Below are positions 2,359 through 9,992 of a stretch of 64,000 nucleotides of DNA, piece after piece (position 1 is the first letter of the stretch; every line of letters starts with the position of its first letter). Source of the stretch: a virus; the IMG/VR virus record IMGVR_UViG_3300005613_000020, positions 1 through 64,000 of that record, one strand, 5' to 3'. The translations under genes and the position numbers were made by a program. Under the pieces are notes generated by a model. That model made no database searches, was not told the origin of the DNA, and saw nothing but the letters and a program-made list of their open reading frames with translations.

Positions 2359-3288
2359 CTAATCTTGATTGTCATGGCAATTAAGCCTATCCTGTAAACG
2401 GCGTTTAAACATCAAGGCTGTTTCCTTGCTAATTACCTTCTGAACTTGTTTATTCCAAGCTATCTCTCCTTCTGCTTCTCTGCGAATATCTTCTACCATT
2501 TCAGAAATTACCTCGCCTGTATCTTCAATGTTAACATCCTCGTCGAAATTCTGGAGAACATGGGTAAGTCTCATTTCCGTTACCCACTCCTCACAAACCA
2601 TCTTTGCATCCTTGATTACTTCAAGTTCATCCGCACTAACAACCTTTCGTGGAGTCTTGGTTTCTTTGAATTCCTCTCCCTTGTGCTTGCAGATTACCCT
2701 CTTTCCATTATTCTTTGTCATTTCCTCAATTGGCCTTAGAACTACGCCCTCTCTCTTGTGACCAGGACCCATCCCGTTCTTTATGGCCTGAACTGATTCC
2801 CTATCCCTTTCGGCATCAACCGCGCTAATGGTTGTTGGAATTTTCTTATAAGGTACAAAATCAAGACCAAGTTTCTTTGCTATTTCTTCTGCCTTTGGCA
2901 TACTAAGCCAACGATCACCAATCTTTACATCAAATACCACAAACCTAAGTTCATTCCCGTAGGTTTCTTTCATCCCTTGCATCTTTCCGCCGTATGCTTC
3001 TCCATATACAATAACAGTTGTACATCCCATACTACAGAAATTCCTTGCAAGAACTTCTTCATCAAATATCTTTACAAAATCCTCGTGCTTTGCCCCTCCA
3101 GAGAAAAACACTAAATCATAATTGCTGTAAATACCCTGATCAGACAATTGTCCAGAAAACTTAACATGTGCCGACGTTCCATGAATCTTCTCCGACGCAT
3201 AGCATTCCTTGAACATCAGAACATCTTGATTCTTGTAAAGGTTATCTATATGAAGGTAGCCTATTGTTCTATCTCCTCTTCTACGCAT
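2359..3288 (-). CDS. RNA ligase, Rnl2-like
   Basis: Motif I EKIHGT, then YGEAYG, FVVFDV, EGVVLRP, KHK nucleotidyltransferase motifs; the real start may be the ATA at 3264. Confidence 0.85.
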   Translation of the reverse strand: MRRRGDRTIGYLHIDNLYKNQDVLMFKECYASEKIHGTSAHVKFSGQLSDQGIYSNYDLVFFSGGAKHEDFVKIFDEEVLARNFCSMGCTTVIVYGEAYGGKMQGMKETYGNELRFVVFDVKIGDRWLSMPKAEEIAKKLGLDFVPYKKIPTTISAVDAERDRESVQAIKNGMGPGHKREGVVLRPIEEMTKNNGKRVICKHKGEEFKETKTPRKVVSADELEVIKDAKMVCEEWVTEMRLTHVLQNFDEDVNIEDTGEVISEMVEDIRREAEGEIAWNKQVQKVISKETALMFKRRLQDRLNCHDNQD

Positions 3289-3584
3289 TCATCAGGAAAT
3301 ACTAAGATTCGTTCCAACTTATCTAGTTTCTCTGTAATATGTGTGTTGATCAATTCTTCAATATTTGGAAATATATAACTCAGCTGATCAATCATGATAA
3401 TCGTGTTGGCAATCTCTTCCGCCAAGGAATTCAAAGATCCACACCGACCTCTTCGAAAGTGGTTTGCTTCCGCACTCAGTTCAGAGCTTTCCTCTGCTAG
3501 CATTGCTACTTGCTCCTGAACTCCCCACTTATTTACAGCAAGCTTGTAAATCTCTTGCTTCTTTTCTTCCGTCCAATTTTCCAT
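3261..3584 (-). CDS. MazG-like all-alpha NTP pyrophosphohydrolase
   Basis: AEESSEL...LAEEIAN motif pair (the usual ExxD appears as ExxN). Confidence 0.7.
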   Translation of the reverse strand: MENWTEEKKQEIYKLAVNKWGVQEQVAMLAEESSELSAEANHFRRGRCGSLNSLAEEIANTIIMIDQLSYIFPNIEELINTHITEKLDKLERILVFPDECVEEEIEQ

Positions 3585-3586
3585 AT

Positions 3587-3952
3587 TTACTTACTACCGT
3601 AGGCTTTCCTTAAGTCAGTTTTTACTTGCTTATATCCATCTGGAGGAATTTTCCATTCGGGATACCATTCAGTCCAATTACAAGTACCTAGCCTTATCTC
3701 AACCAACCCTAGTCTATTCGCTGCTCTGATTTGCCACTTTGCCTTTTGCCAGCAATTAGGAACCCAACCTTTTATTGCGTAGTGATTCTCTTGCTTCTTT
3801 GCACACTCATCACAGTAATAGTCAGGTAACTTTGGGTCAAGGTCGTAGGGACCGCCGAAGTCTATTGAATAATCCGAATCCCATTTACAGAACTTACCAC
3901 ATATGCAGCAATGATTTCTGTATGACAATTTGTTTTTAGCTCTTTCTATCAT
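3587..3952 (-). CDS. hypothetical Zn-finger protein
   Basis: CxxC...CxxC; operonic spacing. Confidence 0.55.
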   Translation of the reverse strand: MIERAKNKLSYRNHCCICGKFCKWDSDYSIDFGGPYDLDPKLPDYYCDECAKKQENHYAIKGWVPNCWQKAKWQIRAANRLGLVEIRLGTCNWTEWYPEWKIPPDGYKQVKTDLRKAYGSK

Positions 3953-3963
3953 TACTCCATTAC

Positions 3964-4431
3964 TTAATTCGTTATATAGATTTCTTCCCTGTATACAAAG
4001 AATAGACCTATTGGATTTACACTATCATCTTCAATAATTGTAAGTTCGCCACATAATAGATATTCTTGTAACAAGTTAACAAGTTCATCATCACTGCAAC
4101 CTAGACCAAAAGGTACCTTAAGAAGTCCGGGGGATTTTCTAAGCTCCAGTTTATCAAATCTCTTTAATCCTAGTTCCCTAAGAATGGATTTAGCTTCTGC
4201 ACTAATAAGTTCCTTTGGATTCTCGGACGTTCTTAGTGTTATTATTGGAAATAAGAATGATTTTCCAAGATATTGTTTACCGTGTTCAAATTTTGTGTTG
4301 GTACCAATAAGCATAATCCTCGTAGAAGTTATACCAGAAAGAAATCTTAGTGCTGGTACCCATTCTTCTGGTACTATATGTCTTTCAACCTGTTTATCTC
4401 CCAGAAATACTAGACAACATCTACTATCCAT
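3964..4431 (-). CDS. hypothetical protein
   Basis: ORF with AGAGGAG RBS. Confidence 0.55.
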   Translation of the reverse strand: MDSRCCLVFLGDKQVERHIVPEEWVPALRFLSGITSTRIMLIGTNTKFEHGKQYLGKSFLFPIITLRTSENPKELISAEAKSILRELGLKRFDKLELRKSPGLLKVPFGLGCSDDELVNLLQEYLLCGELTIIEDDSVNPIGLFFVYREEIYITN

Positions 4432-4483
4432 TATTTTCTCCTCTTTCTCTCTACTTCTTTACGACACTGTTCTAGATACCGCT

Positions 4484-4543
4484 TGCTAACGTTAAAGTCA
4501 CCCGCTTGGTTCCTCTAAGTCGGTGTCCACTGCTTTGTTGGTC
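4484..4543 (-). other. attC site 3 (60 bp, degenerate)
   Basis: Minus strand GACCAAC-AAAGC-AGTGGACA-CCGACTTAGAGGAACCAAGCGG-GTGACT-TTAAC-GTTAGCA. Confidence 0.7.
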
Positions 4544-4734
4544 CGCCTAATCAGATCGTATCCTACCTTAGCTAGAGCCGCCCTTAAATCCTTGGCCCCG
4601 ATAATAAACCACCCGCCACTCCCACAATCCTCATCGCCGACCATCAATTCATCCAGCCATCCATCAATAGAGTCTAGGATAATTTGGTTATCATTTTCTT
4701 TGCACCTATAGCGTATACGCGTTTCTACTACCAT
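4498..4734 (-). CDS. cassette-borne hypothetical protein
   Basis: ATG at 4734 behind GGAGGG; the TTG start at 4764 in the ORF track is the attC R' core; stop codon lies inside attC. Confidence 0.7.
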   Translation of the reverse strand: MVVETRIRYRCKENDNQIILDSIDGWLDELMVGDEDCGSGGWFIIGAKDLRAALAKVGYDLIRRTNKAVDTDLEEPSG

Positions 4735-4758
4735 TGTTCCCTCCTTACCCGATGGTCG

Positions 4759-4813
4759 GCCCAACGTCTGAGCTAACCCGCGTTCCTACGTCGGGTTGAG
4801 CGATTTGTTATGC
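4759..4813 (-). other. attC site 2 (55 bp)
   Basis: Minus strand GCATAAC-AAATC-GCTCAACC-CGACGTAGGAACGCG-GGTTAGC-TCAGAC-GTTGGGC; L''/L' pair with one extrahelical base. Confidence 0.9.
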
Positions 4814-6209
4814 GGCGTAGTTGTTTAGGATGATACCGCCAATACCAAACACTATACCCATGCTTGTCTCCGATGATTGGCATTGCTTCAACTAACAGAT
4901 TCCCTATTCGCTCACTGACGCGTTCACAACGGCGGAACCCATTAGTGCGAAACATATTCCCCTCGTTATCTATCACAAGGTACCGATCAGCTAGCATTCC
5001 TCTAAAGAACCCAATACAGAAGTGATCCATTGGGTCACCATCCCCAATCATTTTTAATATAGTTTCACCGATTGATTTTGCCAAAAACGGTGGAACCGCA
5101 TTGCCTACTTGTTCATATTGTTGTGTGGTACTTCCATAGAAAATATATGAATCTGGGAACGATTGTATTCTTGCAGCTTCCCTAACAGATATAACCCTAT
5201 CCTGCACCGGATGGAAGAAGCTTCCCCAATGCGGGTCGCATTTAGTTAACACCGTTGAACATAATCCTTCAGGGTGAAGTCTTCCATATCGTTTAGTGTG
5301 ATCGCTTCGACGCGCACGCTTTAATCCCGCTGGCAATAAATCAAATGGAATATCTCTCCAGCTACCGCCTTGCGGTATATGTTTAAGCCGTTCTAAATTA
5401 ATCTTGCCAAGCTTTGAGCAAATATGGTTTTCAATGCGCCTAGAGCCTATGCGGAGAATTTGTTGATATTCGCTTTTTGGTTCTGTTGGATAATCAAATA
5501 TACCGTTAGTGTCTCCCGGCTCTATTTCTGGCAAATCGGATATTGCATCCCATACACTTGTGTGGGCTTTTAAGTGCTGTGCAAACAACGGCGGGATACT
5601 AATGCAAAGTTCTTTTGCGCCAGTGAAATTGGCAACTGCTGTTGCGTTATAAGTAGGCTCAGGAAAAATTATCTTTTTTCCTCGACCTTTAATTGCAATA
5701 AAGGTAGTTCTGAATCTCATTTGCGGCACTCCGTAATGGCCTGCAAATAATATTCTATGGGCTACGCTATAGCCCATCCTGTCAAGCTCTTTATAAATCT
5801 GCTCGACAACTGTTCCTTTTCCTAAAGATACAATGCCGGGTACATTTTCAATCAATACAGCTTTGGGTTTGAGTGTTTCTGCGATACGTAAATAATCTTT
5901 AAATAGATGATTTCTTTTATCATCAAGGCTTCGGATTGGCGCATTTATAGAGAAGCCTTGGCAAGGTGGCCCGCCTGCAAGCAAATCTAACTCGCCAACT
6001 TTCAACCCAAGGCTTTTCTTCAAGCTTCTATCGCAGACCTCTCGGACATCATCGACTACAACCTCTGTGTTTGAATGGTTTCGCTTGTAGGTATCTGCAT
6101 AATTTGGGTCAATTTCATTTGCCAATATTGGTGAAAAGCCAGCCATTTCCAAGCCACATGAAAGGCCTCCAGCACCTGCAAACAAATCAACTAAAAGTTT
6201 CTTTTTCAA
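4773..6209 (-). CDS. DNA (cytosine-5) methyltransferase with ~85-aa unrelated C-terminal extension; cassette-borne
   Basis: Motifs I DLFAGAGG, IV GGPPCQGFS, VI ENVPG, VIII GVPQMRFR, IX SVREAARIQSFPD, X QVGNAVPP. Confidence 0.95.
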   Translation of the reverse strand: MKKKLLVDLFAGAGGLSCGLEMAGFSPILANEIDPNYADTYKRNHSNTEVVVDDVREVCDRSLKKSLGLKVGELDLLAGGPPCQGFSINAPIRSLDDKRNHLFKDYLRIAETLKPKAVLIENVPGIVSLGKGTVVEQIYKELDRMGYSVAHRILFAGHYGVPQMRFRTTFIAIKGRGKKIIFPEPTYNATAVANFTGAKELCISIPPLFAQHLKAHTSVWDAISDLPEIEPGDTNGIFDYPTEPKSEYQQILRIGSRRIENHICSKLGKINLERLKHIPQGGSWRDIPFDLLPAGLKRARRSDHTKRYGRLHPEGLCSTVLTKCDPHWGSFFHPVQDRVISVREAARIQSFPDSYIFYGSTTQQYEQVGNAVPPFLAKSIGETILKMIGDGDPMDHFCIGFFRGMLADRYLVIDNEGNMFRTNGFRRCERVSERIGNLLVEAMPIIGDKHGYSVWYWRYHPKQLRRITNRSTRRRNAG

Positions 6210-6251
6210 ATTTCTCTTTCCTATCTACACACGTAGGATGGTTTTTATTGT

Positions 6252-6299
6252 GCATAACGTTGAGTTCAGCGGCTTGTCCGCTGAAACGGTTGGTTATAT
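6252..6299 (-). other. attC site 1 (48 bp)
   Basis: Minus strand ATATAAC-CAACC-GTTTCAGC-GGACAAGCC-GCTGAAC-TCAAC-GTTATGC; canonical R''-5-L''(8)-loop-L'(7)-5-R' layout. Confidence 0.9.
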
Positions 6300-7072
6300 T
6301 GCGTATCTTCAATTCTCTGCTTTGCGATTTCAAAGTATTCTTTATCAATCTCAATACCGATGAAATCGCGGTTTAACTGTTTCGCCATTTTGCCGGTTGT
6401 TCCACTGCCCATGAAAGGGTCAAAAACGGTATCGCCTTCATTACTCCACGATATTATGTGATCATGTGCAAGTTTTTCGGGGAATATCGCAGGATGTTGA
6501 TATGCTATTTTGTCTTTTGTAACATGACCACCACCAACTGTGTATTTCCAAACATTCCCTATAACTTTGTCACTTGATTTTGAAGGCTTCCCTTTGTTGT
6601 GGAAGTTATTATCTTTTTCTCTTTGATAATTTTTAAATTTCCTATTATCTTTCCATACTTTTTTTTCTTTTATTGGGTTAAATACTCGAGGACCGGTCTT
6701 TTTTGTAAATATAAACATATATTCAAAATACTGTTCATACCTATTGTGTGATAGTGGTGGGCCTGTTTTGCTATATATCATCGTATCATGCAAGTTAAAT
6801 CCAATTTCCTTAAAATATAATGCTTGTTTAAAGCTTGACCCCGTCTCACTACCTTTAACCGTAGCATCACCAACAACCCAAACAACGACACCGCCGGGTT
6901 TTGTAACTCTCCATAAACCGGCAGCAATAGCGGAAAATTCTGCCCAACCCCAGGTTGATGAATTATTATAAGTCCTCAGATTGTCGTATGGTGGGCTTGT
7001 GACCGTCAAATCAATCGAATCAGGCTCACATGTAAATAAATACTCTCTGCAATCCCCGTGTATCAGTTTCAT
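6266..7072 (-). CDS. DNA amino-methyltransferase (beta class, SPPY; N4C/N6A); cassette-borne
   Basis: [22 protein letters not shown]. Confidence 0.93.
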
Positions 7073-7096
7073 TTTACCTCGTATTTTCGTTTAGCA

Positions 7097-7115
7097 ATAT
7101 AACAAGTGATTAGCT
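7097..7115 (-). other. attI-like primary insertion site (or decayed attC)
   Basis: AGCTAAT-CACTT-G|TTATAT; the GTTATAT core matches R'' ATATAAC of the first cassette. Confidence 0.6.
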
Positions 7116-7337
7116 TGACTCTCCATATATAGACATCGCCTTATTGAAGCCCTGGACCGCACTCCTATCATGGAATCTTTGTGTACCAGGTAGTACCAAC
7201 TCCACGGTAGTAAAGGCGCTTCTCTTGCTTTCATCGTATCTATATCTCACGGCGTATAAGCTATTGCCGTATTGCCTTGTGAGTTTCTTAGTCCCTGGAT
7301 CGCCTGGGCCCATTCTTTTAATTACTGTTCCCTGCAT
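7110..7337 (-). CDS. conserved hypothetical protein (PGxxGTK...YG...VRYRYD...TVEL type)
   Basis: Recognisable motif string; function unknown. Confidence 0.65.
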   Translation of the reverse strand: MQGTVIKRMGPGDPGTKKLTRQYGNSLYAVRYRYDESKRSAFTTVELVLPGTQRFHDRSAVQGFNKAMSIYGESS

Positions 7338-7481
7338 TAGCCGTCTCCCTTAACAATCCCTCTTAACAATATGAAAGAAAAAAGAAAAAAAGAAAGAAAT
7401 AACTAGTATGCTCTCCACCCATCCGCTAGACCAGAAATGTTTTCAACATCCCTTGTCCTCCCCTCTTCCCTCCATACTCTT

Positions 7482-7510
7482 ATTATACCGGATTTTACAA
7501 AAAAGTGTAA
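7482..7510 (-). promoter_or_regulatory. sigma70-like promoter, class with TTTTGTAAAA spacer; candidate Pc for the cassette array
   Basis: TTACAC-17 bp-TATAAT; the same spacer motif occurs at 34859 and 45179. Confidence 0.65.
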
Positions 7511-7544
7511 CATTAGCTTCAAATTTAAGTCGTCTACGATATAG

Positions 7545-9992
7545 TTAATCAACAAGAGTTCTCCCAAGAATTCCTTTGTCAACATCCCATTCAACTTCAG
7601 TAGCAGGAAGTTCAACTCCTGTTCTTACACCAGTTAGTCTAATAAGACGACGTTTTTCTTCAATGGTTGCATTCTCAGTTTTTGATATTATCAGGCATTG
7701 ATCTACAGCTTGAGCAAAGGCAAAAGAGTATCCAACCTCGTCAATAGAAGGAGTTTCCTTTTCTGTAGATCCTCTACCAAGTTGGTTGGAAGCAAGAACA
7801 ACAATGTTTCTAGATGTAGCAAGTGACTTCAATCCATATGTGACATTCATAACCTTCTCCCATGTATTGATATTCTTCTTGCTATCCTTGATAAGATATA
7901 TTCCGTCTACTACTACAATATCAGGTTGAAACTTCGCTGTTATATCTTCAATGCTTCCTAGAGTAAGCGCCTTCTTATAAGCATCTCCTACAACGGACAT
8001 CCAATCAGATCTATCAGATATTTGCTCCAACCAATCCTTATACTCCGTTGGATTTGAGAGTGTTCCTCTAACCAATCCCATATTAGAAAACTCATAACCT
8101 GTGATCTTTCCCATGATTGTATCCCAACGTGCCTCTAGTTCAACGATAGATAGCTCTGGTGAGAAAAATAGAACCCTTTTGCCTAGGGAGTATGCAATGC
8201 ATGATAGGTATAGAGCAAGCCAGCTGTTATGTACTACTAATCCATTAGCTATAAAATTATGGTTTCCCTCTATTTCTAGATCATACGTATTATCATAGTT
8301 GCAATTCTTGCGTATAGTGGAAACCTTATCAAACCATAGTTCTGATGTAGATAAGTTTTGCAAAACAGTAGAATCATATTTCTTAGCAAATGAGGATAAA
8401 GTTTTTCTTGGGCAAGCTCTTTTACCGTCTTGCTTATAAACATCCTTTCTTGGTATCCTAGAAGCTTTCCAAAAATAATCTGGTCTTTCATCCCTTATTA
8501 TTTTTCTTATCTCCATTGGAAATGTAGAATCTCTTCGTCTTCTCCCGCAATAGCTGCTGTAGAATTCTTCAAACTGAGCCAGCTTGTCTCCTATTAAGTG
8601 TCTACCTACAGTGTTTCTAAACTTTTCTATAATTGTTGGATCATTTAGTTTTACTCTAATCGTATGTTTATTAGGATATATTTTAGACGGAATACCTAGC
8701 CTGTGAAGCATAAAAGAAACTTGAGATAACAGTTTTTCAGAGCAACTATCGTAAGCAATGTAGGTTTTAACTTCCCCGTCTCCACACCACATAGCTCCCA
8801 ATAAAATAGCTATTTGATTCGTATCTAGTTCATACACAAAATTCTCCAATGTCTTATCTATTGATTTATGCCCCCATAACCCTACCTTTTCTAAAAGTTC
8901 TCTTAAGCCGTTATGCCTTTCTCCACCACCTCTAATTTCGAAACTTCTACCTTCTTGTTTAATTGATGAAAACCAAGCCTTTGGATATAAGAAATTTATG
9001 AGACTTCTGAACCTTCGGTTAATCTCCAAATCATATGCTGTAAAAGAGGGCAACAAACAACATCCGTCAGAAATCATATATCCCAGTATTTCTAATTCTT
9101 CGTTTGATAGAAAGCATGATGTTTCTGATTCTAGAAGGCAGCTTGGTCTTATGATTGATTCCCCCTCTTCCAAATCTTCAACTTTGATCCAGCCCCTAAG
9201 AGTAAATACAGGATGATTTTTTGTTAGTTTAATAGATAATCCACTATCAAAGGATACTTCATAGATTTCCTTTTTCCCGTTATCTATAACATCAATGACC
9301 TTGCACCAGGAAAACTTGTAGTTATTTTCATCTATGCTTTGAACTACATCTCCCAATACAACATCCTCTATATTTATATAACCGCGCTTAGTCCAAACTT
9401 TGGACCCTTTGCATAAGCATTTTCCACGTTTTGTAGAACCAATAACTCCCACTAAATTGCCTGGCAACCAGCTTACTCCAAGTTCGTCAAGAATTTCTAG
9501 GCCAGTAGGAATGCCAATTGGTTCACCATGCTTAATTGCTTCTACCTTTTCAATTAGCCTATCAATTCTCTCAATTGCATCTCTGTCTGTATAGCTTCTA
9601 CCGTAATCTGCATCTGGCCTAAGTTCGGATAGATTGCTTATCAGATACTCAAGTGAATCTAGTGGCTTCTCTTCTTCCATTAGTAGTTCGATTCCCCGCT
9701 CTAAAACAGATTGCATTGACCTAGATGTTTGAGCCTTAATCAGCTCAGATATATGCCATTCAAGCTCGTCTTCAATTACTGTGTCGGACTTGAAGCTATC
9801 AAACTTCTTCTCTAGAACTTGTATAGAAGGAACCTTTCCCTCATAGTTCCTAGAAAACTCCTCCACAAATTCATAGACTGGAAGCAGCTCTTGAAAGGAG
9901 TTAGGACTAATTCCCTTATCTCTGAGATCTACAAGCTTGTCAAAGGAAATTATTGATGAAATAACATATCTCTCTAAATCAATTTGATCCAT
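7545..9992 (-). CDS. DnaB-like replicative helicase containing an intein
   Basis: Walker A GSTKRGK/S split by the intein; Walker B IVVVDGIYL; SNQLGR; spliced product 417 aa. Confidence 0.9.
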   Translation of the reverse strand: MDQIDLERYVISSIISFDKLVDLRDKGISPNSFQELLPVYEFVEEFSRNYEGKVPSIQVLEKKFDSFKSDTVIEDELEWHISELIKAQTSRSMQSVLERGIELLMEEEKPLDSLEYLISNLSELRPDADYGRSYTDRDAIERIDRLIEKVEAIKHGEPIGIPTGLEILDELGVSWLPGNLVGVIGSTKRGKCLCKGSKVWTKRGYINIEDVVLGDVVQSIDENNYKFSWCKVIDVIDNGKKEIYEVSFDSGLSIKLTKNHPVFTLRGWIKVEDLEEGESIIRPSCLLESETSCFLSNEELEILGYMISDGCCLLPSFTAYDLEINRRFRSLINFLYPKAWFSSIKQEGRSFEIRGGGERHNGLRELLEKVGLWGHKSIDKTLENFVYELDTNQIAILLGAMWCGDGEVKTYIAYDSCSEKLLSQVSFMLHRLGIPSKIYPNKHTIRVKLNDPTIIEKFRNTVGRHLIGDKLAQFEEFYSSYCGRRRRDSTFPMEIRKIIRDERPDYFWKASRIPRKDVYKQDGKRACPRKTLSSFAKKYDSTVLQNLSTSELWFDKVSTIRKNCNYDNTYDLEIEGNHNFIANGLVVHNSWLALYLSCIAYSLGKRVLFFSPELSIVELEARWDTIMGKITGYEFSNMGLVRGTLSNPTEYKDWLEQISDRSDWMSVVGDAYKKALTLGSIEDITAKFQPDIVVVDGIYLIKDSKKNINTWEKVMNVTYGLKSLATSRNIVVLASNQLGRGSTEKETPSIDEVGYSFAFAQAVDQCLIISKTENATIEEKRRLIRLTGVRTGVELPATEVEWDVDKGILGRTLVD
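8226..9419 (-). mobile_element. 398-aa intein with LAGLIDADG homing endonuclease
   Basis: Starts CLCKGSKV, block B TKNHPV, LGYMISDG and LGAMWCGDG motifs, ends YDLEIEGNHNFIANGLVVHN/S. Confidence 0.95.

Follow-up and report, generated by a model that had tools for sequence, protein, structure and literature searches.

The window analysed in this work comprises 64,000 nucleotides (positions 1-64,000) of the IMG/VR virus record IMGVR_UViG_3300005613_000020, a phage genome of 96,884 nt (~97 kb) with direct terminal repeats that is graded complete. Window positions 4490-7102 (minus strand) are a 2.6-kb array of three genuine integron cassettes without an integrase, that is, a cluster of attC sites lacking an integrase (CALIN; used here in the sense of IntegronFinder, with at least two attCs, close together, on the same strand and with no integrase nearby). 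The cassettes of this phage CALIN were likely derived from a bacterial integron and put in by an integron integrase (IntI) of the host acting in trans. The features of the array are the following:

7097-7103, minus: 5' array boundary, core G|TTATAT; G 7103 is phage flank and cassette 1 begins at T 7102.
6266-7072, minus: cassette 1 gene, predicted N6/N4 DNA methyltransferase of 268 aa with an SPPY motif; stop inside attC1.
6252-6299, minus: attC1, 48 nt; R'' ATATAAC, L'' with one bulged T, L', R' GTTATGC.
4773-6209, minus: cassette 2 open reading frame (ORF), 478 aa; predicted C5 DNA methyltransferase (residues 1-392) plus an 86-aa tail in frame; stop in L' of attC2.
5035-6258, minus: shared segment of cassette 2, 5' leader plus 393-codon C5 methyltransferase; ~99% identical to contigs of four unrelated metagenome studies.
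4759-4813, minus: attC2, 55 nt; R'' GCATAAC, 5-nt spacer, L'' GCT(C)AACCCG, 6-nt spacer TCAGAC, R' GTTGGGC.
4498-4734, minus: cassette 3 gene, a 78-aa ORFan; stop inside attC3.
4484-4543, minus: attC3, 60 nt, decayed; R'' GACCAAC, L box broken by extra bases, R' G|TTAGCA.

The three attCs (window 4484-7103) have the canonical order R''-L''-loop-L'-R' and fall within 1.8 kb, all on the minus strand and in the orientation of their ORFs, which is the canonical one of bacterial arrays; there is one co-oriented ORF per attC, and each ORF stops within its attC. Read from 6299 to 6252, attC1 has the order ATATAAC-CAACC-GTT(T)CAGCGG-loop-CCGCTGAAC-TCAAC-GTTATGC. Read from 4813 to 4759, attC2 has the order GCATAAC-AAATC-GCT(C)AACCCG...CGGGTTAGC-TCAGAC-GTTGGGC, and its bulged base is the C in L'', which reads G on the bottom strand, the strand that recombines. 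The stem of attC3 (GACCAAC...GTTAGCA) is weak; the last cassette base is G 4490, and the TTAGCA at the end of this site is probably phage flank. The GC content and the GC skew of the array were both unlike those of the flanks.

The cores of the array interlock. The boundary GTTATAT (7103 to 7097) and the attC1 R'' ATATAAC are reverse complements (7/7), as are the attC1 R' GTTATGC and the attC2 R'' GCATAAC (7/7), and the attC2 R' GTTGGGC agrees in the same way with the attC3 R'' GACCAAC at 6/7 positions. The GTTATAT 7-mer has 24 copies in 2 x 96.9 kb. The joint chance of three interlocks was roughly estimated at ~1e-6, using 0.005 for the 7-mer in a ~40-nt leader (from its genome frequency), 1/256 for the second interlock and 13/256 for the third. 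The interlocking cores fit IntI crossover at G|TT. An initial annotation of the window, made from its letters without database searches, had claimed the same three matches, and they were exact when checked on the sequence. It had also read them as the footprint of cassettes inserted one after another, with the newest ones proximal. This order is not established, because a single circle with three cassettes explains the interlock equally well.

Rfam holds no attC model, so covariance models were built from attCs in other DNA, and no window sequence was used to train any of them. The sources were Shewanella phage M16-3 (complete integron), Vibrio phage Va_90-11-286_p16, class 1 arrays in a P1 isolate and the CALIN of Tetrasphaera phage TJE1; the models are home-built and are not those of IntegronFinder. 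R1 was trained on Vibrio and Shewanella attCs only, R2 on class 1 and TJE1 attCs and one Shewanella site, and R3 on 39 attCs from environmental arrays and from the integrons of Vibrio and Shewanella. R1 was judged too narrow because it missed attC2, attC3 and, with default filters, the TJE1 controls, and R2 and R3 were built for this reason. Searches with R2 and R3 covered the whole genome on both strands with filters off. A simple stem scanner gave 80 matches and was dropped as unspecific. The scores were:

R1: attC1 18.9 bits; attC2 and attC3 not found.
R2: attC1 38.8 bits (E 3e-7), attC2 49.3 bits (E 5e-10), attC3 14.5 bits (E 0.57).
R3: attC1 46.0 bits (E 8e-9), attC2 44.3 bits (E 2e-8), attC3 25.3 bits (E 9e-4).

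The top three matches in the genome were the three attCs, with R2 and with R3, at the minus-strand coordinates proposed in the initial annotation; all remaining genome matches with R3 were at or below 12.2 bits. The R2 and R3 alignments placed the AAC and GTT cores and the bulge of attC1 (T) and attC2 (C) at consensus columns. In the positive controls, the three TJE1 attCs ranked first in the TJE1 genome with R1 (15-22 bits), and genuine Vibrio and Shewanella attCs scored 20-53 bits with R2. Almost no matches came from the negative control, ~1.1-1.2 Mb of viral and bacterial DNA unrelated to the array, where the noise was at most 15 bits.

The bottom strands were also folded. The z-scores were -3.1 for attC1 (-10.4 kcal/mol), -1.0 for attC2 and +0.5 for attC3. 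Fold energy alone is weak evidence, above all for attC3. As attC3 has no significant fold, it was counted as decayed, and with the weakest model scores and an interrupted L box it is the most decayed of the three, as had been proposed for the distal site. Chance hairpins or transcription terminators that merely resemble attCs were considered as an explanation of the whole array. attC sites can work as weak terminators and attC3 folds no better than shuffled sequence, which would suit this explanation, but attC1 and attC2 reached 44-49 bits against noise of at most 15 bits in ~1.2 Mb of control DNA, no T-runs follow the stems, the bulged base stands at the canonical position, the cores interlock, and the identity of the cassette to other DNA stops at G|TT (see below). 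Chance hairpins are effectively refuted.

A second, degenerate cluster of attC-like sites was observed in the replication module of the phage, at genome positions 87,949-88,003 and 88,192-88,231 on the minus strand (4049-4103 and 4292-4331 of locus L086), with a further degenerate site at ~3800-3815 of the same locus. Two of these sites start with ATATAAC, the core of attC1, and GTTATGG closes one of them. The sites lie on either side of a 71-aa ORF and of a stretch of ~190 nt without an ORF. They scored 12-15 bits with all three models, no single site being significant, and could be relics of older cassettes.

The cassette 2 protein matched Pfam PF00145 (C-5 DNA_methylase, 2e-68), and its residues 1-392 were 96% identical to a 393-aa protein. 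Twenty public runs contain part of the stretch 3800-7800. Contigs of four studies (soil, biofilm, freshwater and coal) were aligned to it, and the only part matched at ~99% was 5035-6258 (11-16 differences over 1224 nt). The upper end of the identity was at 6258-6260 (6259 or 6260 in two runs), which is the G of the attC1 R' box and the predicted IntI crossover. Beyond it, the flank was different in each study, and one of these flanks resembles the 3' arm of another attC. The identity ends below at 5035, the normal stop of the methyltransferase; beyond this stop, three runs had one common alternative sequence. The alignments thus present cassette 2 as a discrete mobile unit at its 5' boundary, with near-identical copies in other contexts that diverge at G|TT. 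The same gene in relatives without a boundary at the GTT core had been named in advance as an outcome that would speak against the array, and the opposite was found, the near-identical copies ending at the core. A short freshwater contig (run X4) matched attC1 (window 6254-6300) with 3 differences over 38 nt and had other sequence on both sides; an attC of the attC1 type exists, therefore, in another context.

Relatives of cassette 2 were found in bacterial arrays, one of them with an integron integrase. In 80 metagenome contigs with relatives of the C5 methyltransferase there were 36 attC matches, all of them on the strand of the gene, and the recurrent unit was the methyltransferase plus a ~300-aa ORF between two attCs. 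In two contigs (L211 and L115) this ORF was NotI-like by Pfam, the matches being weak and below the Pfam cut-off. Neighbouring cassettes encoded REase-ARP and a DUF5655/Shedu-like protein, and a TIR protein in a Lampropedia genome. The contig L174 has a fragment of an integron integrase of divergent sequence (TIGR02249, 242 bits over 187/315 positions vs 64 bits for XerC); its cassette begins with GTTATGC and its attC with GCATAAC, the cores of the phage array. The closest contig, L169 (87% aa identity), aligned to window 6261 to 5035, and its cassette also begins with GTTATGC. The alignment opens inside the R' box of the upstream attC and closes at the start of the endonuclease gene, which overlaps the methyltransferase gene at ATGA. 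This endonuclease start matches the alternative flank that the 99%-identical contigs have beyond 5035. For this reason, cassette 2 is read from these comparisons as a two-gene restriction-modification cassette of bacterial integrons whose adjacent endonuclease gene is gone in the phage copy; the bacterial relatives have an adjacent NotI-like ORF and the phage copy has no adjacent one (at this locus only).

A candidate composite defence cassette was noticed in a betaproteobacterium that is in culture, Lampropedia hyalina DSM 16112 (L115, positions 3012-6147). Its three genes, for a TIR-domain protein, a C5 methyltransferase and a NotI-like endonuclease, form a unit between an attC-like site and a truncated one.

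All relatives of the C5 methyltransferase have ~390-400 aa vs 478 aa in the phage, where the frame runs on into attC2. The place of the endonuclease start is occupied by 270 nt without a detectable relative, which extend the methyltransferase frame into attC2. The resulting 86-aa tail had no match in Pfam, PHROGs, tblastn, tblastx, blastn or Atlas searches, and its origin as a remnant of the endonuclease gene found no support in them. The frame of the tail (window 4773-5030, minus strand, 86 codons) would be open by chance in ~1% of cases, as a rough figure, so that the tail may be a C-terminal domain proper or a small gene that was captured.

The cassette 1 protein matched Pfam PF01555 (N6_N4_Mtase, 2e-45) and PHROG 67 (DNA methyltransferase, 1.6e-66). 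Its best non-self relatives were 70-74% identical, and one of them (P0007) is labelled N4-cytosine-specific by its source. The two proximal cassettes are thus an SPPY-type N6/N4 methyltransferase and a C5 methyltransferase, in agreement with the initial annotation, but its description of an array loaded with methyltransferases does not extend to cassette 3. The product of this cassette matched only itself in 5.8 billion proteins and had no match in Pfam, PHROG, tblastn, tblastx, blastn or Atlas searches; the local GC of cassette 3 is ~0.50 vs 0.35-0.42 in the flanks. A different attC-like site (26 bits) was observed in the virus record IMGVR_UViG_3300020047_005087 (L072, 1133-2800), between two adjacent N6_N4 methyltransferase genes and in the opposite orientation to them.

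Neither IntI nor any other tyrosine recombinase was found in the whole genome by searches with TIGR02249 and PF00589 and by tblastn with IntI1 and IntIA, which extends to the complete genome what had been noted for the 64 kb. As no integrase is encoded in the genome, the array is a CALIN and not an integron; a complete integron would have intI, attI and a Pc promoter next to the array, but intI is absent from the genome and no att site was recognisable upstream of 7103. Joining 7103 to 4489 rebuilds the target ...CACTTG|TTAGCA..., which has a GWT core. In longer form it reads ...AGCTAATCACTTG|TTAGCAAGC... (also written ...CACTTG|TTAGCAAGC... and ...AGCTAATCACTTG|TTAGCAAGCGG...). By reading, the rebuilt site ...AAGCTAATCACTTG|TTAGCAAGC... 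has a 5-bp inverted repeat GCTAA/TTAGC with a 7-nt spacer, the crossover being at its right edge. This symmetry is suggestive of a simple recombinase site and could be chance.

The same ends bear on how the array reached the phage. A fragment of a host chromosomal integron could have been taken up whole by illegitimate or short-homology recombination, IntI never acting on phage DNA. Such a route was raised for phage CALINs by Qi et al. (PMC9892861), and it would agree with the absence of attI, with the lack of a known IntI for the host and with the other degenerate attC-like relics near 88 kb of the genome. However, both ends of the insert are at G|TT cores, which random breakpoints seldom give, the 5' end pairs exactly with the attC1 R'', and outside the cores there is neither a partial attC nor a fragment of a foreign gene. 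We consider uptake of a fragment unlikely, and insertion of the cassettes by IntI is the explanation followed here.

Under this explanation, the cassettes would be cut out of an integron of the bacterial host, and the replicating phage DNA would receive them through the host IntI, acting in trans at a GTT site of secondary type (attC x attG), either as single cassettes or together in a multi-cassette circle. The cassettes run in the direction of the phage operon, with putative ribosome-binding sites of their own, and they would be transcribed with the surrounding genes of the same strand. The two predicted orphan methyltransferases would pre-methylate the phage DNA and so protect it from restriction. 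In hosts that bear the integron, the protection given by the cassette 2 methyltransferase would extend to its endonuclease partner.

Several points weigh against this explanation. The anti-restriction role of both methyltransferases is inferred from their sequences, activity and expression being predicted only. The endonuclease may have been lost either in the phage or earlier in the bacterium. No near-identical counterpart of cassette 1 was found in arrays, and attCs almost never stood beside relatives of its methyltransferase (80 viral loci). There were also no attCs in 12 other viral contigs with relatives of the C5 methyltransferase; because the viral relatives of both genes are (almost) without attCs, the cassette state is not a general property of these two gene families in viruses. 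The attC models found no attC- or attI-like match upstream of 7103, attI and Pc themselves not being modelled. Relatives of the phage were sought through the flanking genes and none was usable, so that no empty site or alternative cassette content was seen; the suggestion in the initial annotation of an updatable anti-restriction memory consequently finds no comparative support.

Further points against it concern the assembly. Of the words sampled from 3800-7800, no public run contained a fraction above 0.22, and reads or contigs of the phage backbone were not found. The joints at 4484, 5035, 6258 and 7103 have no read cover, the gap in cover outside 5035-6258 carrying no weight in itself. In the protein collection, the genes of the outer cassettes were on separate contigs (11,058 and 32,656 nt) and the 478-aa protein was absent, which suggests that another assembly breaks inside cassette 2, at the 1.2-kb segment common with bacteria. 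An assembly artefact, in which a bacterial integron fragment was joined to a viral contig through common sequence, was considered. In its favour, the 1.2-kb core of cassette 2 is ~99% identical to widespread metagenome DNA and would be repeat-like in an assembly graph, another assembly seems to break there, and no run covers the joints. Nevertheless, the repeat is internal to the array, and only this record has cassette 1, the 270-nt tail, attC2 and cassette 3, which are contiguous with phage genes on both sides. Moreover, the interlock of attC1 R' with attC2 R'' spans the supposed joints, and the record is closed, with its direct terminal repeats and its grading as complete. An assembly artefact is very unlikely.

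Almost all genes of the window are on the minus strand. The array stands in a replication and nucleotide-metabolism module, with a DnaB-like helicase on one side and an ORF like a nucleoside triphosphate (NTP) pyrophosphohydrolase plus an RNA ligase block on the other:

7545-9992, minus: DnaB-like helicase with an intein, backbone upstream of the array (Pfam DnaB_C, Intein_splicing, LAGLIDADG_3).
2359-4431, minus: backbone downstream of the array, with a 155-aa ORF, a 121-aa ORF, the NTP-pyrophosphohydrolase-like ORF and RNA ligase (Pfam, PHROG).
2359-3584, minus: NTP-pyrophosphohydrolase-like ORF and RNA ligase block (Pfam, PHROG).

The intein in the DnaB-like replication helicase (7545-9992) carries a LAGLIDADG homing endonuclease domain. 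The C-terminus of the helicase had a single related contig (L001, 43% identical). The 155-aa and 121-aa ORFs had no relatives, the 155-aa ORF having been searched in viral and metagenome contigs.

Phage CALINs with methyltransferases have already been published, and the array opens no new category. In a screen of 10,705 genomes of phages, Qi et al. (2023; PMC9892861) reported 17 CALINs, some of them in virulent phages. Five methyltransferase cassettes are listed (cargo N6_N4, Methyltransf_11 and Methyltransf_16), 5/6 phage attCs recombined with IntI1, phage attCs of 49-60 nt were active, and the phage cassettes were proposed to help overcome restriction (PMC9892861). The array described here is like TJE1 and the other CALINs of that study in being short and co-oriented, in having no IntI, in its attCs of 48-60 nt and in carrying an N6_N4 methyltransferase. 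The layout of attC1 is close to that of TJE1_attC1, which recombined with IntI1 (PMC9892861), and the cores of the TJE1 CALIN interlock in the same way, as do those of bacterial arrays. Unlike the published list, the cargo here includes a C5 methyltransferase. Moreover, unlike the phages of that study, one cassette has a ~99% identical environmental counterpart that ends at the crossover, as known here from sequence, and the same cassette appears traceable to a two-gene restriction-modification cassette minus its endonuclease. The near-identical counterpart in the bacterial pool, ending at the crossover, and the missing endonuclease half are what is new here.

The array was also compared with other integron systems. 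attC2 has exactly the geometry of the class 1 attCs of aadA1, aadA2 and cmlA1 and of attC(aadA7), with its 5-nt left spacer, its 3+6 bp L box with one bulged C and its 6-nt right spacer TCAxxC; the conserved letters in common with attC(cmlA1) are AACAAATCGCT...CCGAC...AGCTCAG.CGTT. Unlike class 1 integrons, the phage array lacks intI1 and attI1 as well as a Pc promoter and a 3' conserved segment, and its cargo is not antibiotic resistance. IntI is also known to insert cassettes outside integrons, at GWT sites termed attG in the E. coli chromosome (10.1101/2022.09.11.507474). The phage array is similar in that it has a G|TT boundary at either end, in a genome without attI, and the rebuilt target has a GWT core. 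By contrast, the DNA is that of a phage and not the E. coli chromosome, the insertion is deduced from its ends, and the attG hotspot motif CRGM (positions 6-9) is unmatched in the rebuilt target (AAGC). According to two reports (10.1101/2024.07.02.601686, 10.1101/2024.07.02.601719), integron cassettes carry defence systems in mobile integrons and in sedentary chromosomal ones. In bacteria, the relatives of cassette 2 stand beside cargo of a comparable kind (TIR protein, REase-ARP, DUF5655/Shedu-like protein); the phage copy differs in keeping only the protective methyltransferase half, which would serve counter-defence and not defence.

Many anti-phage systems of bacteria are known to be stored in integron cassettes. 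The locus would represent traffic in the direction opposite to such storage, with a cassette of the bacterial pool in a virulent-type phage, only its protective half kept and attCs that look as if they work. The phage methyltransferase and the endonuclease of the bacterial cassette form a testable pair, and the locus is a defined substrate for the action of IntI on phage DNA. As a tentative proposal, which we regard as possible and still doubtful, phages of integron-bearing bacteria may draw on the cassette pool through the host IntI in trans and keep "disarmed" restriction-modification cassettes that are still mobile. If this were true, the defence cassettes of bacteria would become the matching counter-defence of their phages, and phages would carry cassettes between hosts.

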